Source: Thermoplasmata archaeon (GTDB taxonomy: Archaea > Thermoplasmatota > Thermoplasmata > Lutacidiplasmatales > UBA184). Taken from it: 48,666 nt of DNA. Within the stretch, counting starts at the first letter, position 1; every line of letters starts with the position of its first letter. Below are positions 4,234 to 41,959 of this stretch, piece by piece. Below the pieces are notes generated by a model that saw only the letters and a program-made list of their open reading frames with translations, ran no database searches and was not told the origin of the DNA. A program made the translations under genes and the position numbers. The stretch lies in NCBI GenBank assembly GCA_030037955.1, contig JASHPT010000161.1, positions 1 through 48,666 on the forward strand. Direction: 5' to 3'.

Positions 4234-5516
4234 CGGGGAATGGGACGGGTGCGGGCCAGACGCTGGCGGAACGGATCCTTGCTCGGGCCGGCGGCCTCGA
4301 GCAGGTCACGCCGGGGCAGATCATCGACGGTCGGGTCGACCTCGCGATGATGCACGAGCAGGGAGCTCAGACCGTCCAGCCGTTCCACGACATGGGCGCC
4401 TCCCGGGTCTGGGACCCGGATCGGGTCGTCATCGCCATCGACCACTGGGTCCCCGCATCGACCGAGGGGGCGGCGGTCCTGCACCGGATCCTTCGCCAGT
4501 TCGCCAAAGAGCAGGGTCTCCCCCACTTCTACGACGTCGGTAATCACGGGATCTGTCACCAGATCCTCGCCGAGCATGGCTGGGTGGTCCCCGGCGACCT
4601 CGCGGTGGGAACGGATTCGCACACCAACATGCTGGGGGCAATGGGCGCGGTGGCGGCCGGCATCGGGCCGACCGAGATGGCCGCCGTCCTGGCGCTGGGC
4701 AAGCTGTGGCTCAAGGTCCCTCCGACGATCCACGTCAGGGTCCGGGGCTCGCTGAGGAAGGGCGTCTATGCGAAGGACCTCATCCTGCGGATCCTGGGCG
4801 AGATCAAGACCACCGGTGCCACCTACAAAGCGGTCGAATTCTCGGGACCGACCATCGAGCGGATGTCGATGTCCGAGCGCTTCACGCTCTGCAACATGAC
4901 GACCGAAATGGGCGCCAAGTGCGGGATGATCGCCCCCGACGCCACGACCTACACCTTCCTCGAGAAGATCGCGAAGCATCCGATGCATCCCCTCGCCCCC
5001 GACGCGGACGCCCACTACGAGCGGGTGGTGGACATCGACGTCGACGCGCTGGGACCGATGGTCGCCTGTCCGTACTCGCCGGACAACGTCCGACCCCTCG
5101 AAGAGGTCCTTCCGAAGCACGTCAAGGTCGACCAGGTATTCCTCGGCTCCTGCACGAATGCCCGCATCGATGACCTCCGCGAGGGGGCCCGGATCCTGAA
5201 GGGGCACAAGGTGGCCGCCGGCGTCCGCTTCATCGTGTCTCCGGCGTCCACCTCGATCTACAAGCAGGCGCTCGACGAGGGACTCATCGAGACCTTCACC
5301 GAGGCCGGGGGCGTCTTCACCAATTCGAGCTGCTCCGCCTGCTTCGGCGGCAACATGGGCATCCTGGCCCCCGGCGAGGTCTGTGCCTCCTCCTCCAACC
5401 GGAACTTCCCGGGACGCATGGGCGCCAAGAACGCGGAGATCTACCTGCTCTCGCCGGCGGCGACGGTCGCCGCCGCGATCCGAGGCGAGCTCGCCGACCC
5501 GCGCGAGTTCCTGTAG
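4230..5516 (+). CDS. leuC: 3-isopropylmalate dehydratase/homoaconitase large subunit
   Basis: DH, GICHQ, DSHT, GSCTN, CSACFG, NRNFPGRMG; ATG 4230 overlaps upstream stop (ATGA). Substrate uncertain. Confidence 0.9.
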   Translation: MTGNGTGAGQTLAERILARAGGLEQVTPGQIIDGRVDLAMMHEQGAQTVQPFHDMGASRVWDPDRVVIAIDHWVPASTEGAAVLHRILRQFAKEQGLPHFYDVGNHGICHQILAEHGWVVPGDLAVGTDSHTNMLGAMGAVAAGIGPTEMAAVLALGKLWLKVPPTIHVRVRGSLRKGVYAKDLILRILGEIKTTGATYKAVEFSGPTIERMSMSERFTLCNMTTEMGAKCGMIAPDATTYTFLEKIAKHPMHPLAPDADAHYERVVDIDVDALGPMVACPYSPDNVRPLEEVLPKHVKVDQVFLGSCTNARIDDLREGARILKGHKVAAGVRFIVSPASTSIYKQALDEGLIETFTEAGGVFTNSSCSACFGGNMGILAPGEVCASSSNRNFPGRMGAKNAEIYLLSPAATVAAAIRGELADPREFL

Positions 5517-9004: not shown

Positions 9005-12000
9005 ATGGATTCGGAATCAGGCAGTTGGTGGAGCCGTTACGGCTGGACCACCACCCTGCTGCTGTCCGCATTCGCGATCGCCTTCCTCGTTCGGACGATT
9101 TTCACGCTCAGCGTCTTCGAGCAATATGGCTGGCTGTACGTCTACGGAGGCGGCTCGGACTCGTACTACCACTGGCGGGTCACGGAGTTCATCCTGACCA
9201 ATCACCGGAACCTGATCCACGACCCGCTGCTCAAGTACCCCCTCGGCGCGCTCAACCCGCGCGAACCGCTGTTCGACTGGATGAACGCGATCCTCGGGCT
9301 CCTGCTGGCGCCGATCTTCGGGGGCAGTGCGACGAATGCCGCCGCCTTCGCGCTCAACATCGATTCGCCGCTCTGGTCGGCGCTGACCGTCTTTCCGATC
9401 TACCTGATCGGGAAGGAGATCAGCTCGAAGCGGATGGGCCTGGTCGCGGCGCTGCTCTATCCGTGGGTCGTCGGGAGCATCCAGGCTGCCGACCTCGGCT
9501 ACGCGAACTACCTGACCTTCTACACGTTCTTCATCCTGATCTACTTCTACGCCTATCTTCGGACGGCGAAGGCCGTCAGCTCCAAGACCTACATCCAGAG
9601 CTTTCGGCATCCCCGGGAGGTCCTCGTCGGTCTCCGCGAGATGGTCCGTCAGGAGCGGCGGGCGGTCAAGTGGGCGGTCTTCTCCGGGGTGTCGCTGGGA
9701 GCGCTCGCGCTGGCCTGGCAGGGATACCCGCTGGCCGTGGCCATCGTGATCATCTCGCTCGCCGTCATCATGGTGGTCGAGCGGATCCGTCGGATCGACT
9801 CGGTCAATCTCTACGTCGTCACCTGGATCGCCGGGCTCATCGGCTTTCCCATGGCGGTGCCCTATTACCTGGGCCAGGGGCTCTTCGCCACCTGGTTCGA
9901 CCTTCCCCTGCTGATCTACTTCGGCGCCCTGATCGTCCTGCTCCCATTCGTCATTCTGCGGCAGTACCCCTGGGTCGTTACCGTCCCGGTGCTGGCCGGC
10001 GTGGTCGGAGTCGGCTTCGGGGCCCTCGCCGTCCTGGCGCCGTCTTCGTTCCAGACGCTCATCACGGGACAGGGCTACTTTGCCAAGACCCTGATCTACT
10101 CGACCGTTGCCGAGGCGCAGGCACCCTCGTTCGATGCGCTGGTCGTCTCCTACGGGATCCTGACCTTCTTCCTCGCCTTCGTCGGGCTCGCGCTGTTCGT
10201 ACTGAACCTCGCTCGGAAGAGGTTCCGTCGGGAACACGCCCTGTTCGTCGTCTTCGCCATCGTCACCATCTACCTTCCGATCTCGGCGGCGAAGTTCTTC
10301 TACGTCAGTTCCCCGACGTTCGCCCTCCTCCCCGCCGAGGCGCTCCTGATCATCCTGGACGTCGCGGGCTACTCCACCCTGCGTCGGTCGACCGAGTCGC
10401 TGGCCGGAAGTCGGGGGACCTTCACCGCCCTCCGGCGGTCGTTCAAGGCGCGGCACGTCCTCGTCCTCCTCCTGATCACGGCCCTCGTGGTGCCGAACAT
10501 CTGGTACTCGATCGACGCGGGCATCCCGTACAACACCAAGTCGGGCTACAGCACACAGGTCTTCGACAGCCTGCCCTCGTTCCTGCAGACCAACGCGAGC
10601 AACGCCTCGAGCTTCTACCTCGGCGCCTCCGGGATCGACCTCGACACGCCGAATCAGTACGACGAGGCGGGCTACAATTGGCTCGCCACCCAGGATACGA
10701 ACCTCGCCTACTCGTCGCGTCCCGCCTTCGTCAGTTGGTGGGACTACGGGTTCCAGGCCATCGCCGAGGGCCAGCATCCCTCCGTCGCGGACAACTTCCA
10801 GAACGGCATCCCCGCCGCCGGGAACTTCTTGCTCGCGCAGAACGAGTCCCTGGCGATCGGCGTGCTCGCGACGACCTTGCTGGCGGCCGAGCAGCAGGCG
10901 ACCAACCTGCCGTACCTGCCCCCGGCACTCAACACCCTCCTGGCGTCGGACGGTGTCAACCTCGCCGAGCTGCACACGCTCCTCGCGAACACCTCCGCCG
11001 ACGTGACCCTCGTCGTGAACCACCCCGACCGGTATCTGGCCGTGGATCCCTCGACGATCACTCCGACGAACGCCATGTTCGATGCCGTGAGCTGGTTCCT
11101 CGCGAACACGCTCACGGAGAACGGCGTGGCCACCGTCTACGACGACATCCAGTCGTACACCGGGTGGACGATCCGGTACGCGATGGTGGACGACCGGCTC
11201 TTTCCCTTCACGGGGACGAACACGGGGATCTTCTACGCGCCGGCCGAACTGACCGGCCGCGTCATCGGGGAGGACGGGGCCCCCACGACGTACTACACGA
11301 TCGAGGCCGAGGGGTCGGACGGCAACGTCTACCCGCTCAACGAGGTGCCCTCCGGCGTCAGCATCGTGAACTACGTCCTGAATCAGCTGGCACCGTTCTA
11401 CAACTCGATGATCTACCGGATCTACATGGGCTACAACGGGACGGACATCGGCCTCAGTCCGGGGATCCCCGGCCTCGAGGGCTCGCTCACGAGCTACACG
11501 CCGGAGCCCGGCTGGATGCTCCAGCACTTCGAGGTAACCTACCGCACGGCCTACTATTCCCCCACCGCGACGACCTCCTCCACGGACTGTGACATTGCGA
11601 CCAACTATCCCCAGGCCGAGGCGCTGGCCGCGAAGACCAACGGCACGGCCAACCTCGGGTCGGACTGCTACTTCAACGGCGGGGAGGCCATCCTGGAGTA
11701 CTACCCTGGCCAGCCGCTGTCGGGGACGATCACGCTCCCGAACGGCTCACCGATCGCGGGTGCCCGGGTCACCGTCTACGACAGCTGGGGGATCCCCCAC
11801 CAGACGGTCCTCACCTCCGCCGACGGTTCCTATTCCGTGATCCTGCCGCCCGGCAACGACACGCTGAACGTCACGAGCGGGAACCTGCAGGGCCTGGGCC
11901 AGAACGGCACCGAGCTCCTCGAGTCGATCCACCTGTACGTGGCTCCGGCGCTGGGCTTCAGCCTCACCGCCGTCCCGATCTCGCAGAACATCGTGCTCCA

Positions 12001-15000
12001 GCCGGGGTCCGTCGACGGCTTCGTCTACTGGAACTCCACCGGCAACCAGACCTACGAGTCCTCCGTGGACCCTCCGGCGGTCGGGGCGAGCGTCACCCTC
12101 AGCAGCGCCGGGGTCCAGAACTACACGGCGACCACGGATTCGGCGGGCAGCTTCCACCTCACGAACGTGGCGCCCGGGGTGTACAACTACAGCGTTCGGG
12201 CGGCCGGTGTGACCTTCTCGGCGGGCCAGGTGGCCGTGCCCGCGGGCGGCATGGCCAACGCCACCGCGGGCCTCGTTCCCTCCCAGCTCAAGGGAACGGT
12301 GACGCTGCCCTCCGGCTCTCTGGTGTCGGGCGCTACGGTCACGGTCTGGAACGCGACCGGCTTCTCCGAGAGCACGGTCACGAATGCCTCCGGTGGCTAC
12401 GTGTTCTCGAACCTGGTACCCGGAAACTTCAGTGTCCGGGCCGTGAGCGGCTCGACCCTCGCGAGCAATGCCTCCGCCGCCGAGCTCAACTCCACCACCA
12501 ACCGCACCCTGACGCTCGGGCTCACGCTGGTACCGGTCGTTCCGATCAGCTTCCAGGTCCAGGTCAGCGGGACCCCGGTGCCGGGCTTCACCGTTCGGCT
12601 GACGCCGATCCGGTCGACCGTCGGCTCCGCCTCGACCCAGTCTCCCCGGCCCTCCGCCGCCCTGGTCTTCACCAGCGACGCCACGGGAACCGTCCACGCC
12701 ACCGTTCCGGCCGGGAACTACTCGATCTACGGCTACGGGCCGGTCGGCTCGACGTTCGTCACCGGCTTTGAGAGCGCCTATCTCCCCAGTTCGACCACGA
12801 CCATCACGGTCGCCCCCCTCAAGCTGTCCACGCCGGTTCTCCTGACGGGCCAGTCGTCCCTGCCCTCCGGGATCCTGAGCAGTGAGGTCAGCGCGACGCA
12901 GATCTCGCTCTACGACAAGTCCGGCAATGAGCTCACCTTCTTCGCCAACAGTTCCGGGTCCTGGTCGGTCTATGCGCCGGCCGGCAACTACAGTGTGCAG
13001 GCGCTCGCGACCGAGGTCTCCCCCTCGGTGGGCAACTTCTCCGCCGTGGCGTACTTAGATCTCGTCCGGACCACGTCCATTTCGCTCCCGCTCACCTCCG
13101 GGTTCAACTTCGCCACGACCCTCGGCGCTCTGGTGCCGGGCGGGACCTTCTATCCGGTCCAGGCCGGCGAGGTCCACCTGACCGTGAACCCGGCCGGGGC
13201 CACGCTCAGCACGCTCACGGCCTCCAACGGTGGAGTCAGCTTCCTCGTACCCACGGCGACGTCCTCGACGACGTACTGCCTGTCCGCGTCGGCGACCGGG
13301 TTCGGCAGCTACCAGACCTGTAGCCTCTCGGCCGGCTCGCTCACGAGCCTCACCCGGATCGTGGTCCCGCTGCTCAACGTGACGCTGCAGGTCTCCGTCA
13401 CCGGGCTTCCCTCCGGCGGAACGCTGCGGCTCAACGCGACCGCGATGGGGGTGCCGGCGCAGAGCCGGTCGGTCACCGGCGGGTCGTCATTCTCCGTCTC
13501 GCTCGCTCCCGGTCCGTACCAGATCACCGCCTGGGCGCCGCCGACATCCGGGACCGGCGTGCTCCAGCCTCCCGAGTCAATCAACGTGACGCTCCCGGTC
13601 GGCATCAGTCCGACCAACCTCACGGTCCAGCTCTACCGGCAGGTCACCGCGACCGGCACCCTGTCGCTCCCGTCGGGCGTGAGCTCGTCGGACGTGCAGG
13701 TACGGATCTATGGCCTACCGTTCAACTTCACCGTCACGGGAAAGACGTACCTCTCGGGCTTCCGGATCGCGCCGGGCACCTACTCCGCCTACGCCTCTGC
13801 GTCCGTGAGCGGAGTCAACTACACCTCGCTCGCGATCGTCACGGTGAACGCCACCGGCACCACGACGCCGACGTTGACGCTCAGCACCGGCGTCCCGGTC
13901 GTCGCCAGGTTGGTCGGCCCGAGCGGAGGGACGCTGGTGCTGTCCGTGCCCGTCTACTGGTCGGGTCCCGGAGGGACCCAGCTGTACTCGCTGTCCACGA
14001 ACGGGACGGTGAGCCTTACGCTCCCCGGCCCGGCGACGTATACACCCTCGGTCAACGTCACCGTAGCCGTCACCGTCGGCGGCGTGCTCCGCTACGCCAC
14101 CTACGCCGTCGTCGCGGGCACGACCTGTTCGGTCGGCACGAGCGCATCGACCTGCTCGATCCCCCTGACCGTCGTCTATCACCCGGCGGGGATCAGCGGC
14201 CAGATGTACTGGAACGGGGGGCCGCTCACGATCTCGGGGACGGTGCGTCTGATGGGCCCGTACCCGTCGACCAATACGACCTCGGTCACGACGACGAACG
14301 GGGCCTTCTCGCTCGCCGTCCTCCCGGGGGTCTACACCCTCTACGCGACCGCGGGCTCCGGCTCGGGGGTGTTCGCCGCCCTCCTGCAGGTCACGGTCCC
14401 GTTCCCGTCGACCACCGTCAACGTCACGCTGTCTCCGGCGTGGACCGACCTGCTCACGCTGGTAGCGCCTTCGGGCGTATCGTCGCTGGCGACGGGGAAT
14501 GTCACGTGGACCAGCTCCACCGGCGTGTCGTGGACGTCCACCGGGGTCGCGCTCGGCACGCAGTCGGCCTGGGTCCTTCCGCTCGGCACCTGGACCGTCG
14601 TCGGGAACGGGACGGCGGTCATCGTGGGTCAGTCGGTCCCGACGACCGCCTCCGGCACCGTGACGCTCCTCCTCGGGAACCAGGCCACCAGTCTCACGCT
14701 CGTGCCCTCCTACACGCGCTCGGTCGTCATCACGACGCTGCCGCCGACCTCGGCGACCGTGCCGGCCGGCGGGAGTGCGACCTTCTCGTTCACGGTGACG
14801 AACACCGGTAACACGCCGGTGACCATCCGGCTCTACGGTGACCCGTCGAGCTGGAACTTCACGTTCAGTCCCACGACGGTGACCCTCGGGGTCGGACCCG
14901 GCAATTCCACGGCCGGCGGAACCGTCGTGGTCCGGGTGCCCTACGGGGCGACCACCAACCACGCACCGGTGGCCCTGGGTGCCATGCTGTCCGCGAGCCC

Positions 15001-15568
15001 GAACACCGTCATCGGCTCCTCGTCCCCGTCCCCGACGGTCAACGTCATCCCGGTCCCGGGCATCTCGATCACCCCGAACCCCTCGGGGGCGTCGGTCGGC
15101 CCGATGACCGCCACGGTGCAGTTCTCGGTCGAGAACACGGGGAACACACCCTACCAGGCCGCCGTGACCGTCGCCGATCAGGTCCAGCTCGAGCAACTCG
15201 GCTGGACGGTGAGCCTCCTCCAGGGGTCGTCGGCCGCCGCATCGACCGTGAGCATCGGCCCCGGCCAGACCCTCGTCTTCTCGGTCGTGCTGACGACGTC
15301 CGGGTACGCCCAGCCCCCGGGCACGATCGCCGTCCAGGCCCAGGCCGTGAACACGACCGGGAACGCCATCGCCTCGGCGGAGATCTCGGTACCCACCGGC
15401 GTCGTGAGCGCTCCGAACGGGATCACCGTATCCGGGCCGCACGTCGGGACTCCCCCGGTGCTGCCGGACTGGGCCTGGACCGTGATCGCGATCCTGCCGG
15501 CCATCGCCTTCCTGGCGATCCTCCTGACGGTGCGATGGTGGCGGACCCGGCGGTGGGTCCGCAGGTAG
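9005..15568 (+). CDS. aglB: STT3-family oligosaccharyltransferase AglB fused to multiple carboxypeptidase-regulatory-like/Ig-like domains and a C-terminal membrane anchor
   Basis: Multi-TM N-terminus, SDSYYH, TVAE, SWWDYG, DNFQ; then Ser/Thr-rich beta repeats (G.V...G..V.GATV, PG.Y), final TM and basic tail. Confidence 0.88.
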   Translation: MDSESGSWWSRYGWTTTLLLSAFAIAFLVRTIFTLSVFEQYGWLYVYGGGSDSYYHWRVTEFILTNHRNLIHDPLLKYPLGALNPREPLFDWMNAILGLLLAPIFGGSATNAAAFALNIDSPLWSALTVFPIYLIGKEISSKRMGLVAALLYPWVVGSIQAADLGYANYLTFYTFFILIYFYAYLRTAKAVSSKTYIQSFRHPREVLVGLREMVRQERRAVKWAVFSGVSLGALALAWQGYPLAVAIVIISLAVIMVVERIRRIDSVNLYVVTWIAGLIGFPMAVPYYLGQGLFATWFDLPLLIYFGALIVLLPFVILRQYPWVVTVPVLAGVVGVGFGALAVLAPSSFQTLITGQGYFAKTLIYSTVAEAQAPSFDALVVSYGILTFFLAFVGLALFVLNLARKRFRREHALFVVFAIVTIYLPISAAKFFYVSSPTFALLPAEALLIILDVAGYSTLRRSTESLAGSRGTFTALRRSFKARHVLVLLLITALVVPNIWYSIDAGIPYNTKSGYSTQVFDSLPSFLQTNASNASSFYLGASGIDLDTPNQYDEAGYNWLATQDTNLAYSSRPAFVSWWDYGFQAIAEGQHPSVADNFQNGIPAAGNFLLAQNESLAIGVLATTLLAAEQQATNLPYLPPALNTLLASDGVNLAELHTLLANTSADVTLVVNHPDRYLAVDPSTITPTNAMFDAVSWFLANTLTENGVATVYDDIQSYTGWTIRYAMVDDRLFPFTGTNTGIFYAPAELTGRVIGEDGAPTTYYTIEAEGSDGNVYPLNEVPSGVSIVNYVLNQLAPFYNSMIYRIYMGYNGTDIGLSPGIPGLEGSLTSYTPEPGWMLQHFEVTYRTAYYSPTATTSSTDCDIATNYPQAEALAAKTNGTANLGSDCYFNGGEAILEYYPGQPLSGTITLPNGSPIAGARVTVYDSWGIPHQTVLTSADGSYSVILPPGNDTLNVTSGNLQGLGQNGTELLESIHLYVAPALGFSLTAVPISQNIVLQPGSVDGFVYWNSTGNQTYESSVDPPAVGASVTLSSAGVQNYTATTDSAGSFHLTNVAPGVYNYSVRAAGVTFSAGQVAVPAGGMANATAGLVPSQLKGTVTLPSGSLVSGATVTVWNATGFSESTVTNASGGYVFSNLVPGNFSVRAVSGSTLASNASAAELNSTTNRTLTLGLTLVPVVPISFQVQVSGTPVPGFTVRLTPIRSTVGSASTQSPRPSAALVFTSDATGTVHATVPAGNYSIYGYGPVGSTFVTGFESAYLPSSTTTITVAPLKLSTPVLLTGQSSLPSGILSSEVSATQISLYDKSGNELTFFANSSGSWSVYAPAGNYSVQALATEVSPSVGNFSAVAYLDLVRTTSISLPLTSGFNFATTLGALVPGGTFYPVQAGEVHLTVNPAGATLSTLTASNGGVSFLVPTATSSTTYCLSASATGFGSYQTCSLSAGSLTSLTRIVVPLLNVTLQVSVTGLPSGGTLRLNATAMGVPAQSRSVTGGSSFSVSLAPGPYQITAWAPPTSGTGVLQPPESINVTLPVGISPTNLTVQLYRQVTATGTLSLPSGVSSSDVQVRIYGLPFNFTVTGKTYLSGFRIAPGTYSAYASASVSGVNYTSLAIVTVNATGTTTPTLTLSTGVPVVARLVGPSGGTLVLSVPVYWSGPGGTQLYSLSTNGTVSLTLPGPATYTPSVNVTVAVTVGGVLRYATYAVVAGTTCSVGTSASTCSIPLTVVYHPAGISGQMYWNGGPLTISGTVRLMGPYPSTNTTSVTTTNGAFSLAVLPGVYTLYATAGSGSGVFAALLQVTVPFPSTTVNVTLSPAWTDLLTLVAPSGVSSLATGNVTWTSSTGVSWTSTGVALGTQSAWVLPLGTWTVVGNGTAVIVGQSVPTTASGTVTLLLGNQATSLTLVPSYTRSVVITTLPPTSATVPAGGSATFSFTVTNTGNTPVTIRLYGDPSSWNFTFSPTTVTLGVGPGNSTAGGTVVVRVPYGATTNHAPVALGAMLSASPNTVIGSSSPSPTVNVIPVPGISITPNPSGASVGPMTATVQFSVENTGNTPYQAAVTVADQVQLEQLGWTVSLLQGSSAAASTVSIGPGQTLVFSVVLTTSGYAQPPGTIAVQAQAVNTTGNAIASAEISVPTGVVSAPNGITVSGPHVGTPPVLPDWAWTVIAILPAIAFLAILLTVRWWRTRRWVRR

Positions 15569-15574
15569 CCTCGA

Positions 15575-16393
15575 ATGATCGCTCGCTCCGGTCCGGTGCT
15601 CCCCTCGCTCGCGGTCCTGCTCGTGCTGCTGCTGCTCGTCTCCGGGCTCGCGCTCGGCGTGTCGGGCGCGATCCGCCCGGCGAGCACCCCGGCGCTCGTG
15701 GGCACGATCGCGGGGCCGTCGATCGTGGGGGAGTCGTTGACGGCGCAGTACATCGTGAACGGCTCGGGCGGACCGGCCGAGGCCGCGAACGGCACGACGG
15801 TCGGGAACATCACCTTCAACGCGACGCTCTCGGGCAACAACGTCTCGACGGCATCGATCAATCCGTCGACCGGGGTCCTCATCAACGGCAGCGAGATCCT
15901 GCGCTTCACCGCGCCGAGCGTGGTCGAGGTCGTGACGCTCCGCGTGGAGCTCACCTCGAGCTATGCCGGTGCGAACGAGTCGGCGAACTTCACGACGCGC
16001 ATCAGTGTCGTCGCCCCGTACGTGCTCGCCGGCACGCTGTATTCCGGCTCGACGACGGTCCAGGAGTTCAACATGACCGTCACGCTGGACGGGGTGCCGG
16101 TGGGCCAGGTGTCGGTTCCGACGCTCTCCGCCGAGACCTCGCACGCCTTCAGCTTCGATTACGTGACGGCGCACCTGAGCCCGGGATGGCACACGCTCGC
16201 GGTCTCGCTGGCCGATGAGCACGGGTTCGTGACCTTCACGGGCGGCGTTCAGCAGTACGCGGTACGATTCTACATCGCCAGCGCGCCGCCGGACTACACG
16301 CTGGACGTCGCGGTCGGGATCGCCGCCTTCGCCGTGGCCGTCTTTATATGGGGGTCCGTGGTGGGCGCGCGCCGCGGCCGGCGCGCCCGGTAA
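15575..16393 (+). CDS. Secreted Ig-like surface protein with signal peptide and C-terminal TM anchor
   Basis: Hydrophobic N-terminus, N-X-S/T sequons, PGWHTL.V Ig-type motif, C-terminal TM plus RRGRRAR. Confidence 0.75.
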   Translation: MIARSGPVLPSLAVLLVLLLLVSGLALGVSGAIRPASTPALVGTIAGPSIVGESLTAQYIVNGSGGPAEAANGTTVGNITFNATLSGNNVSTASINPSTGVLINGSEILRFTAPSVVEVVTLRVELTSSYAGANESANFTTRISVVAPYVLAGTLYSGSTTVQEFNMTVTLDGVPVGQVSVPTLSAETSHAFSFDYVTAHLSPGWHTLAVSLADEHGFVTFTGGVQQYAVRFYIASAPPDYTLDVAVGIAAFAVAVFIWGSVVGARRGRRAR

Positions 16394-16408
16394 CCGGCCC
16401 TCCTCAGC

Positions 16409-16582
16409 ATGCTCGCGCGTTCGGAACTCCGATGCACCTCGTGCGGCCGCGGGCTCACCGGCCCGGGCGCGACGGCGTTCCTCTGTCCGTCCTGCGGCAC
16501 GGAGACGATCGGCCGGGACGGCCGCTGCCGGGACCAGAGCGTGCCGTACACCTGCAAGAACTGCGGTTTCGTGGGCCCGTAA
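16409..16582 (+). CDS. Small Zn-finger protein (DUF1610/HVO_2753-like)
   Basis: Manual: MLARSELRCTSCGRGLTGPGATAFLCPSCGTETIGRDGRCRDQSVPYTCKNCGFVGP; family usually lies directly upstream of archaeal EF-1beta. Confidence 0.88.
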   Translation: MLARSELRCTSCGRGLTGPGATAFLCPSCGTETIGRDGRCRDQSVPYTCKNCGFVGP

Positions 16583-16596
16583 CGCGGGAGCGGACG

Positions 16597-16863
16597 ATGG
16601 GCGACGTGGTCGTGCTCCTCCGGTTGATGCCGCACGGCGTCGAGACGGACATGAACGCGCTCGCGGCCGGCGTCAAGGGCGCCGTCCCCGAGGGCGTCCG
16701 TCTCCGAGGGATGCAAGTGAAGGACATCGCCTTCGGCCTCAAGGCGCTCCTGGTCGCCGCCGAGATGCCGGACGCCGGGGGCGTCCTGGACCGGCTCGAG
16801 GGAGCCCTCGCCAAGGTCCCGGGCGTCGAATCCGTCGAGGTCATGGAAGAGAGCCTGATCTGA
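16597..16863 (+). CDS. ef1b: Archaeal elongation factor 1-beta
   Basis: MGDVVVLLRLMP, IAFGLKAL, VESVEV; 88 aa from ATG 16597. Confidence 0.93.
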   Translation: MGDVVVLLRLMPHGVETDMNALAAGVKGAVPEGVRLRGMQVKDIAFGLKALLVAAEMPDAGGVLDRLEGALAKVPGVESVEVMEESLI

Positions 16864-16945
16864 ACCGTTCGCCGGGCGCCGCCCGGTCGCTGTCGCTGCG
16901 CACGGCCGAAAACCCTTTTCTCCCGGACCGCTGTCATTCGCTCGC

Positions 16946-17053
16946 GGCCGGGATGGGGTAGTCTGGCCTATCCTGGGGGACTGTGGATCCCTCGACCCGG
17001 GTTCAAATGGGAGCGGGGACACCCCCCGACCCCGGAGAGTCTCGGTCCCGGCC
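16946..17053 (+). tRNA. tRNA-His(GTG) with encoded G-1 and a 32-nt intron in the T-loop (17008-17039)
   Basis: Acceptor GCCGGGA/TCCCGGC, G-1:C73, anticodon arm GGGGA-CTGTGGA-TCCCT, T-stem CCGGG/CTCGG; removing 17008-17039 restores TTCAAAT loop; CCA not encoded. Confidence 0.9.
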
Positions 17054-40534: not shown

Positions 40535-41344
40535 CTACCCTTCCGGCGGTGGAAACTCCGGCTTTCGCTTCTCGCCGAACGCCTGGATCCCCTCGGCAAT
40601 CTCGGGGCCGGCGGCCACTTCGGTGGCGTATCTCCGCTCGAGGGCGAGTTGGGCCTCGAGGCTGGAACCGTAGGCGGTGACCATCAAGTGCTTGAGCGCG
40701 GCATAGGCTCGAGTCGGACCGGCGGCCAGTTCCGCTGCCCTCTCCCAGGCGCGGGCCTCCAGCTCCTCGGGGGCGACCACTTGATGGATCAGGCCGAGCG
40801 ACAGCGCACGGTCGGCAGTGACGCGGCTGTTCGAAAAGAAGAGCTCCTGGGCTAGCCCGATTCCCACGTAGTGCGGGAGCAGGAACGTGAGGCCCCCGTC
40901 CGGGACGGCCCCGAGAGCCCCGAACGCAGGGACGAGGGTCGCGTTCGTGGAGGCGATCCGCCAGTCGCACGCCAAGGCGAGCGACAGTCCGCCGCCGGCT
41001 GCAACGCCCGGCAAGGCCGCAACCACCGGCTTCTTCATCCCGAGCAGTTCCCGGATCGTGAACTCGAGTTCCCCGGTGAGCTCGTAGAAGAGCCGGGCCA
41101 GGCTGCCCGAGTCCAGATGGGCTCGCATCGAGGACACGTCGCCCCCGGCCGAGAACGCCTTGCCCTCCCCGGTCAGGATGACCGCTCGGACGGCCGGGTC
41201 GTGGGCGGCGGTCTGGAGGGCTCCCCGGAGCGCTCGCACCGAGTCGGGGTCCAGTGCGTTGAGCCTGCTCGGCCGGGACAGTCGAACACGGGCCACGGCG
41301 TCGCGACGGTCGACCTGGATGGTCGATGGGGCAGGGCCTTCCAT
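40535..41344 (-). CDS. Enoyl-CoA hydratase/isomerase (crotonase, PaaG-like)
   Basis: FSAGGD, GVAAGGGLSLALACD, PDGG, EGIQAFGEKRKPEF. Confidence 0.9.
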   Translation of the reverse strand: MEGPAPSTIQVDRRDAVARVRLSRPSRLNALDPDSVRALRGALQTAAHDPAVRAVILTGEGKAFSAGGDVSSMRAHLDSGSLARLFYELTGELEFTIRELLGMKKPVVAALPGVAAGGGLSLALACDWRIASTNATLVPAFGALGAVPDGGLTFLLPHYVGIGLAQELFFSNSRVTADRALSLGLIHQVVAPEELEARAWERAAELAAGPTRAYAALKHLMVTAYGSSLEAQLALERRYATEVAAGPEIAEGIQAFGEKRKPEFPPPEG

Positions 41345-41395
41345 GGCGGCTCCAGCGCCGCCCGGGCCTTTACGCTACCCCCGACGGTCCGTTCG

Positions 41396-41959
41396 TCAGG
41401 GCCGGGAACCCGCCCGGCGGAAGTCCACCGGTCCCCCGACTTCGAAGATCATCCATCCGATGGTCACGCCGAAGGCCACATGGTCGAGGAGCCCGAAGCC
41501 CAGAGGCTGCAGGAACGAGGCGAACGTCGGATGGTCGAGCGAATAGATGACCGGGATGTAGAAGACTGCCCAGACCACGATGCCGAGCAGGGCGCCATCG
41601 ACGACCGCCCAGCCCCGGGTCGTAAAGGAAGGCCAGGTGAGGGTTCGGTGGGAAAACACTCCCAGCGTCGCCACGAACACAAGGGCAGCCACCAGCGGGA
41701 TCAGCAGGTCCACGAGGAGGCCGACAAGAAGCCCGGAGGTCCCCCGGACTCCGAGCACGTCACCCGTACCTTCGTACGGCCCGAGAACCCCGTAGCCGTG
41801 CAGTACCGAGTTGGCGGACGAGAAGAGCAGGACGACGAGCCATGCCGCCACCCCCGCGAAGACGGCTCCGACCCAGTGACGAAACCGGACGGCACGTGCC
41901 GCGGACCGATCCGGGGCGGCTCGATTTATAGCGGTCGGGGAGTCGTCGGACAGTGTCAC
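41396..41959 (-). CDS. Hypothetical membrane protein (about 4 TM)
   Basis: Hydrophobic helices, G..LG.VVW and DHVAFG; start uncertain. Confidence 0.65.
   Translation of the reverse strand: MTLSDDSPTAINRAAPDRSAARAVRFRHWVGAVFAGVAAWLVVLLFSSANSVLHGYGVLGPYEGTGDVLGVRGTSGLLVGLLVDLLIPLVAALVFVATLGVFSHRTLTWPSFTTRGWAVVDGALLGIVVWAVFYIPVIYSLDHPTFASFLQPLGFGLLDHVAFGVTIGWMIFEVGGPVDFRRAGSRP

Follow-up and report, generated by a model that had tools for sequence, protein, structure and literature searches.

The tRNA-His gene and its T-loop insert

We analyzed a stretch of 48,666 nucleotides from a Thermoplasmata archaeon of the Lutacidiplasmatales (GenBank assembly GCA_030037955.1, contig JASHPT010000161.1, positions 1 to 48,666 of the forward strand), called here the window. 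It contains a tRNA-His(GUG) gene of 108 nt at 16946-17053 (+), and direct reading of this gene showed that its T-loop is interrupted by an insert of 32 nt. A previous reading made from the sequence only had described the insert as an intron occupying 17008-17039, at position 59/60 of the T-loop; both the coordinates and the description are correct, as judged by direct reading and by ARAGORN after deletion of the insert. The assembly to which the window belongs (genome label G000, the window being contig C157) comprises 1.88 Mb in 168 contigs, has 68% G+C and is 89.6% complete. Its size and base composition agree with those published for the Lutacidiplasmatales, about 2.1 Mb and about 69% G+C (PMC9287336). 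The gene displays the two features of tRNA-His identity, a GUG anticodon and an extra G-1 facing C73, and direct reading also identified the D-arm and a variable region of 4 nt. The parts of the gene and of the splicing motif discussed below are as follows.

16909-16920 (+): promoter-like A/T box AAAACCCTTTTC, 26-37 nt upstream of G-1
16946-17007 (+): 5' exon, G-1 plus positions 1-59 (direct reading; ARAGORN cloverleaf after removal of the insert; nearly invariant in aligned relatives)
16946 (+): encoded G-1, opposite C73 (17053)
16947-16953 with 17046-17052 (+): acceptor stem, 7 bp (direct reading)
16983-16985 (+): anticodon GTG, within the anticodon loop CUGUGGA
16997-17001 with 17041-17045 (+): 5' strand of the T-stem (positions 49-53) with its partner strand, which is the outer helix h; 5/5 pairs kept in 63/63 distinct sequences
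17002-17007 (+): T-loop part TTCAAA, followed by the insert and then by T60 at 17040
17002-17005 (+): 5' strand of the central helix H, T-loop positions 54-57 (TTCA), facing 17034-17037 (GGAG, intron bases 27-30)
17006-17008 (+): 5' bulge, A58, A59 and the first intron base (AAT); predicted cut after 17007
17008-17039 (+): intron of 32 nt, whose removal restores a canonical 76-nt tRNA-His
17009-17033 (+): inner helix h', made of GGG 17009-17011 with CCC 17031-17033, a 2x2 internal loop, CGGGG 17014-17018 with CCCCG 17024-17028, and a 5-nt loop
17034-17037 (+): 3' strand GGAG of the central helix; a GAGAG repeat here also permits a shifted register in the window sequence
17038-17040 (+): 3' bulge, A, G and T60 (AGT); predicted cut after 17039
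17040-17053 (+): 3' exon, with T60, the 3' strands of T-stem and acceptor stem, and C73, and no encoded CCA (direct reading and ARAGORN)

The position of the cut is ambiguous from the window sequence alone, as either 59/60 or 60/61 would be compatible with the T found at both 17008 and 17040. We placed it at 59/60 because of the geometry of the bulges and because relatives carry A, G or C as the first intron base.

ARAGORN called no tRNA at 16946-17053 of the window, and the gene was matched by Rfam neither at the gathering score nor at E<=1 in a search for tRNAs in the whole genome, which returned 41 matches, none of them on the contig of the window. When 17008-17039 was deleted in silico, ARAGORN called a 76-nt tRNA-His(gtg), a call not made for the undeleted gene. 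The expectation of the sequence-only reading that standard scans may miss this tRNA was thus borne out for both programs, and the intron-aware tRNAscan-SE -A probably finds the gene. Such software has probably already called it, because tRNAscan-SE -A was reported to give tRNAs for all 20 amino acids in the type genome described for the Lutacidiplasmatales (PMC9287336), a report that does not mention introns.

The same reading had regarded a second, intact tRNA-His, together with a lack of spliced product, as the sign that would turn this copy into a pseudogene. No second copy was found in the 89.6% complete genome by ARAGORN, by Rfam or by a BLAST search of the genome with the gene itself, which gave a single match, and all of the 41 Rfam matches have anticodons other than that of histidine. 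An ARAGORN call of 91 nt labelled 'His(atg)' elsewhere in the genome was rejected as a second tRNA-His, as it reads like coding sequence.

Upstream of the gene, a box of the form AAA-N(2-3)-CTTTT(C) recurred at a constant distance in each of the 29 family loci inspected, in a genome with the G+C content given above. The position of TATA/BRE elements in archaea is the basis for reading this box as a promoter, and on its sequence and placement it is likely an archaeal promoter element.

Splicing motif, conservation and covariation

In the precursor, T-loop positions 54-57 face the GGAG of the intron and give a central helix with the pairs U54.G, U55-A and C56-G and an A57.G mismatch, that is, three standard pairs plus A.G. 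Two bulges of 3 nt lie on opposite strands with four positions between them, and both flanking helices, h (exon-exon) and h' (intron-intron), are present, which is the full bulge-helix-bulge (BHB) arrangement. By the BHB rule, cleavage follows the second base of each bulge. The geometry with cleavage at 59/60, one G-U pair and one A-G mismatch is therefore laid out as the sequence-only reading had described it.

The segment 16940-17060 was compared by BLAST with 100 genomes of the same family, representing seven genera. A match spanning both exons and the insert was obtained in 97 of them, many of which are >95% complete. The three exceptions were two genomes (G003 and G028) with weak partial matches to another tRNA, and one (G036) in which the match is cut by the end of a contig. 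The gene with its insert was also detected in 20/20 further family genomes coming from an order-level search. Among the genomes counted for the family, three (G058, G046 and G029) are unpublished; when they are left out, the figure of the BLAST comparison becomes 94 of 97. From these genomes 70 copies were fetched, and one from an unpublished genome was left out; the same layout was seen in all 69 copies that were examined, 66 of which were parsed, resulting in 63 distinct introns with lengths of 29-33 nt. The alignment of relatives showed nearly invariant exons and a variable intron with compensating changes.

The 63 distinct sequences of T-arm plus intron were aligned, and covariation was measured for the structure named above, with 500 shuffles for comparison. 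Paired cells amounted to 91.9%, against 83.7 +/- 0.5% in the shuffles, and 93 cells had changed on both sides, against 28.8 +/- 5.1, a value of 93 being reached by none of the 500 shuffles. When the partners were slid by 1-3 columns, only 10-24 cells with double changes were found. The outer helix, which is the T-stem, is paired in 100% of cells, and the inner helix in 90.9%, 8 of its 10 pairs having changed on both strands. Within the central helix, position 54 forms U.G in 56 sequences and U-A in six and is unpaired in one; position 55 forms U-A in 59 and U.G in four; and C56-G is kept in 63/63. Position 57 is paired as A-U in 24 sequences, which gives a strict helix of four pairs, and is unpaired in 39 (A.G in 36, A.A in three). 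The 5' bulge consists of AA plus any base in all 63 sequences. The 3' bulge begins with A in 61/63, mirroring A58 of the 5' bulge, and its third base is always T60. Additionally, RNAalifold without a given structure returned the T-stem and the inner helix with seven unpaired columns on each side, which corresponds to the BHB register. By these comparisons, the intron is old and under selection.

These data also bear on the term 'relaxed', which the sequence-only reading had applied to the motif and which does not hold in the sense of the field. The relaxed classes HBh', hBH and BHL are described as motifs in which one bulge or flanking helix is lacking or has given way to a loop (PMC3239211, PMC5829648), and the tRNA-His gene has both bulges and both helices. 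The motif is hBHBh', its sole defect being one A57.G mismatch, terminal in the central helix, and the 24 relatives with A-U at this place carry the strict motif.

Distribution of the intron in the order and class

The sister family f3 of the same order, represented by one genome of low G+C, has the same site occupied by an intron of 19 nt, whose TTCA:TGAA helix is perfect. In a further family of the order, f2 (four genomes, L154-L157), the T-loop of tRNA-His is intact and an intron of about 20 nt is found at position 37/38, the canonical one. ARAGORN labels three of these four copies as tRNA-Pro, or as tRNA-Tyr with the intron option. Within one order, then, the tRNA-His intron is found at 59/60 in two families and at 37/38 in one, which makes a compact case for the study of intron gain, loss and relocation.

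For a survey of the class, tRNA-His was fetched from 40 genomes of 25 further Thermoplasmata families. An intron at 59/60 of the T-loop was present in ten genomes of four families (f11, 1/1; f16, 4/4; f22, 2/2; f24, 3/3), and these introns end in TGAA, GGAA or TGGA plus a bulge of two bases. The tRNA-His of the remaining 30 genomes, from 21 families, is uninterrupted. In f2 and in these 21 families the loop reads TTCAAAT or TTCAATT. The 59/60 site is therefore used in at least six families, two out of three in the order and four others in the class. The spread may reflect descent with losses or repeated gain, and both readings stand.

Interpretation of the insert and alternative explanations

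We regard it as very probable that the locus is a working tRNA-His(GUG) gene with a protein-spliced archaeal intron at position 59/60 of the T-loop. Its transcription and splicing, the exact cut sites and the acceptance of the motif at this place by a splicing endonuclease (EndA) of alpha'2 type are what we infer from these data. In the proposed mechanism, T-loop positions 54-57 of the precursor would be paired with the 3' portion of the intron and would not form the loop, so giving the hBHBh' motif. The homodimeric alpha'2 EndA would then cut in each of the two bulges, once after A59 and once at the 3' end of the intron, and RtcB would join the exons, with the T-loop forming and being modified only after the joining.

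Several observations weigh against this interpretation, and we present them here with the alternatives to which they belong. The minimum-energy fold of the gene's sequence in the window has a register shifted by two positions, with -25.1 kcal/mol against -19.7 kcal/mol for the BHB fold, and the centroid structure is also in the shifted register, which the tail GGAGAG permits. Folding gave weak z-scores, of -1.73 for T-arm and intron together and of -0.90 for the complete precursor, only 2 of the 63 relatives have the BHB register in their minimum-energy fold, and the central helix is imperfect, with three standard pairs in the window and in 38/63 relatives and two in one relative. Thermodynamic folding was therefore dropped as a proof of the motif. 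Because nearest-neighbour folding of this one sequence does not yield the BHB, the case for the motif rests on comparative data and not on energy.

These folds would suit a precursor in the shifted register (U54.G32, U55-A31 and C56-G30, with a bulge of 1 nt) that is processed otherwise than by BHB cleavage, and the advantage of 5.4 kcal/mol over the BHB fold speaks for it. The comparison of relatives makes it highly improbable: in the shifted register U54 has to be paired with the last intron base, which is C in 35/63 relatives; a slide of the partners by +2 lowers the paired cells from 91.9% to 50.1%; and the genome's other T-loop introns, with the ends GGAA-AC or CGAA-AC, cannot adopt this register.

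RNA data were searched for direct evidence of splicing. In six RNA runs a fraction of 0.07 of the words sampled was present, and four of these runs were examined, of which three (X15, X16 and X20, from three studies) gave one contig each with a relative's gene about 90% alike and with the intron in place; the fourth gave none. No exon-exon joint was present in the contigs of these runs, a kind of data that cannot show absence. RNA libraries may hold DNA and rarely capture mature tRNA. The unspliced forms, the only ones in these contigs, would agree with an insert that is retained, resulting in a mature tRNA with an enlarged T-arm. We give this explanation a negligible probability, considering the uninterrupted loop of tRNA-His in f2 and in 21 further families. 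The contact between T-loop and D-loop shapes every tRNA, and it would be impossible with the insert retained because positions 54-57 are paired in the precursor fold.

The lack of spliced RNA in the contigs would also agree with a disrupted pseudogene, with the insert as debris and an unassembled second tRNA decoding histidine. In a genome of 168 contigs that is 89.6% complete, unassembled DNA might hold such a second tRNA-His. The evidence of the preceding sections brings this explanation close to refuted: the changes in the insert compensate one another, in contrast to nearly invariant exons, 97/100 relatives retain the insert, among them many that are >95% complete, the upstream box is conserved, and the genome yielded no other tRNA-His.

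The published record also offers objections to a protein-spliced intron at this site. Reviews describe Euryarchaeota with alpha4 or alpha2 EndA as having a single intron, only at the canonical position and with a strict BHB (PMC4090602, PMC4033280), and the EndA of A. fulgidus barely cleaved a BHB intron of the D-loop in vitro (PMC3241643).

Other tRNA introns of the genome

The genome was scanned for BHB-shaped deletions that restore a tRNA, and truncated Rfam matches were inspected. We detected 11 further tRNA genes with a BHB intron of 29-38 nt at 59/60, so that at least 12 such genes, including tRNA-His, are present. The introns at 59/60 in these genes are the following (contig label and positions).

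C35:2051-2080: Glu(CUC)
C96:19677-19710: Ala(GGC)
C96:26301-26335: Arg(UCU)
C97:26632-26664: Ser(GGA)
C99:3929-3962: Gln(CUG)
C102:21661-21692: Arg(UCG)
C126:5580-5608: Gly(UCC)
C132:372-404: Ser(CGA)
C158:1110-1142: Asn(GUU)
C5:3539-3568: Ser(GCU)
C26:540-577: Lys(UUU)

All 11 introns end in [CGT]G[AG][AG] plus a bulge of two bases before T60. T-loops with TTCG have C opposite G57, and those with TTCA have mostly G opposite A57. Most of these tRNAs were missed or truncated by ARAGORN and Rfam. Canonical introns were found in the Met, Tyr, Glu(UUC) and Leu(UAA) tRNAs of the same genome. We also found D-loop introns in tRNA-Lys(UUU) (C26:~600-640, -) and in an initiator-like tRNA-Met (C18:~2420-2450, -), which have 4/4 central and 4/4 inner pairs and only 1-2 of 4 outer pairs. 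An intron is apparent as well in the D-arm of tRNA-Arg(GCG) (C1:~4420-4460, -), with borders that could not be fixed. Among the tRNAs recovered from the genome, those for Asp and Trp are lacking.

Among the cores of the 12 T-loop introns, none of the 66 pairs showed sequence likeness at p<=0.01 against shuffles, and recent transposition of introns between tRNAs was rejected on this basis.

Splicing endonuclease and ligase

One EndA locus was found in the genome, a frame of 354 aa at C162:293-1357 (-), in which the domains PF01974 and PF02778 occur twice each. The protein aligns end to end with the alpha'2 enzyme of A. fulgidus (1r0v; residues 27-334 against 20-292, E 3.5e-28), and in its second unit the motifs FRAY...H..YLV...VRK align with those of solved enzymes, so that this unit carries the catalytic Tyr, His and Lys. 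By its sequence, the enzyme is of the euryarchaeal two-unit alpha'2 type, predicted to be a homodimer. The catalytic unit, searched as a fragment, is colinear with the EndA of M. jannaschii (query 3-157 against chain 5-159), except for one gap of two residues between the catalytic Tyr and His. The ligase RtcB is also present, on contig C133 (567.7 bits).

The specificity of EndA has been tied to loops L1-L3 (PMC5829648), and the site of the CSL loop corresponds to residues 174-178 of the A. fulgidus enzyme as reported in PMC3241643 and PMC5829648. At this site the EndA of the genome reads YGSRIGHRLELSL and that of A. fulgidus YGSEKGDLVTLSL, with no difference in length, the turn being SRIGH in the former and EKGDL in the latter. 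The broad-specificity enzymes are the (alpha-beta)2 type with CSL (L1), the epsilon2 type with ASL (L2) and alpha4 enzymes bearing L3. Neither of their marks, an insertion at the CSL site that contains a conserved Lys or an L3 insertion at the C-terminus, was found. A turn of the same length was seen in 81 EndA sequences of the family and in all 14 EndA sequences aligned from 15 other Thermoplasmata genomes searched, with or without the intron in tRNA-His. Two Arg at the turn are conserved in 73/81 and 81/81 family sequences, and Lys or Arg occurs there in intron-free families too. No EndA signature tied to T-loop introns was therefore seen, the CSL turn being equally long in families with and without the intron. 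The relatives of this EndA that carry names are metagenome-assembled genomes labelled 'Thermoplasmata archaeon', one of them labelled Candidatus Lutacidiplasmatales. The structural (first) unit of the enzyme keeps a full PF01974 domain (51.5 bits). In two other Thermoplasmata families the enzyme is shorter, at 303 and 311 aa, owing to deletions that include the structural unit.

The association with a broad-specificity EndA, which the sequence-only reading had named for introns at such positions, does not apply here, as the only EndA of the genome is an alpha'2 enzyme without a CSL-type insert. Its further proposal that the lineage splices relaxed motifs is not supported in the form given. With an enzyme of this type and a full hBHBh' motif, the tRNA-His gene alone does not show such splicing, but the D-loop introns of the genome, which have almost no outer helix, do speak in its favor.

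A real intron may also be combined with an alpha'2 EndA whose specificity was broadened by means other than the CSL, ASL or L3 loops. This would account for a genome with 12 T-loop introns and with D-loop introns almost devoid of an outer helix (those of tRNA-Lys(UUU) on C26 and of the initiator-like tRNA-Met on C18), and the A57.G mismatch, common in the T-loop motifs, points in the same direction, as do the full second PF01974 domain kept in the structural unit and the poor in vitro activity of the A. fulgidus alpha'2 EndA towards a BHB intron in the D-loop (PMC3241643). Against it, the catalytic unit is colinear with the M. jannaschii EndA and, at the CSL site, with that of A. fulgidus, the length of this site does not differ between Thermoplasmata families with and without the tRNA-His intron, and the full hBHBh' of tRNA-His makes relaxed recognition unnecessary. 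We consider a broadened enzyme improbable, though one to be reckoned with. The tRNA-His gene alone does not require a relaxed-specificity enzyme; the wider set of introns may.

Beyond this gene, it is possible, if on balance rather unlikely, that a branch of the Thermoplasmata, made up of soil archaea resembling Lutacidiplasmatales together with four or more other families, runs many off-position introns on a plain alpha'2 EndA without known specificity loops, with a dozen T-loop introns at 59/60 per genome and D-loop introns lacking the outer helix. If this were true, the rule that subunit type and loop inserts set the substrate range, Euryarchaeota being restricted to canonical introns, would be wrong or incomplete. 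The T-loop site would then be a favoured landing place, the invariant TTCRA giving half a splicing motif in every tRNA.

Comparison with known systems

The 59/60 site is listed among the known non-canonical intron positions (PMC4090602). The intron of the tRNA-His gene, as interpreted here, is a near-canonical BHB, and its site belongs to the known non-canonical ones; from the literature, such introns would not be expected in this lineage or together with this type of enzyme. Our search of the literature retrieved no paper on T-loop introns in Thermoplasmata or Lutacidiplasmatales, and supplementary tables (e.g. Table S7 of tRNAscan-SE 2.0 and the tRNA tables for Lutacidiplasmatales) may list some.

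The closest known case is that of ARMAN-2 (Ca. Micrarchaeum acidiphilum), in which pre-tRNA-Pro(GGG) has a strict hBHBh' and pre-tRNA-Cys(GCA) an hBH motif, both at 59/60 (PMC3239211). Its introns share with those described here the insertion point in the T-loop, the short length and the protein-spliced BHB. They differ in the tRNAs and the lineage concerned and in the enzyme, a three-unit epsilon2 EndA with a specificity loop in ARMAN-2, against an alpha'2 enzyme without insert in the present genome.

The Thermoproteales and other Crenarchaeota also have BHB introns outside the canonical position, many per genome and with several tRNAs interrupted at one position, and their (alpha-beta)2 EndA carries the CSL loop, in contrast to the enzyme found here. 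The sequence similarity of crenarchaeal introns suggests recent transposition (Fujishima 2010, cited in PMC4033280), whereas the 12 T-loop introns of our genome are not similar (0/66 pairs, as above).

The canonical introns at 37/38 of Euryarchaeota, such as those served by the A. fulgidus alpha'2 EndA (PDB 1r0v/2gjw), share with the tRNA-His intron the type of enzyme and the hBHBh' geometry, with two 3-nt bulges four positions apart, each starting with A. The outer helix is here the T-stem and not the anticodon stem, and the central helix is built from universally conserved T-loop bases, with one A.G mismatch in the window.

An enzyme of the euryarchaeal alpha'2 type must here serve about a dozen T-loop introns kept across many species, which provides a natural test of the limits of its substrate range. 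For the annotation of genomes, ARAGORN and Rfam miss the only known tRNA-His of this one and miss or mis-draw 11 further tRNAs. Because common finders miss these tRNAs, tRNA counts and completeness checks of an abundant lineage of soil and peat are biased unless an intron-aware archaeal mode is used.

Other features of the window

ARAGORN also reported an 89-nt 'tRNA-Pro(cgg)' at 41335-41423 (-), with a mismatched acceptor stem, a D-stem of 3 bp, no TTC motif in the T-loop and no Rfam match. Given the poor stems, we took it as a false call, probably inside coding sequence. A frame of 2187 aa at 9005-15568 (+) has a multi-pass hydrophobic N-terminal part, a long remainder rich in Ser, Thr and Val, and a hydrophobic stretch at its C-terminus; by eye it looks like a putative fusion of an archaeal oligosaccharyltransferase with a surface domain. 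The frame at 16348-16863 (+) ends just upstream of the tRNA-His gene, and its listed start is probably too far upstream. Its last ~90 codons, which include DIAFGLKALLVAAEMPD and VESVEVMEESLI, presumably encode elongation factor 1-beta, which they look like.

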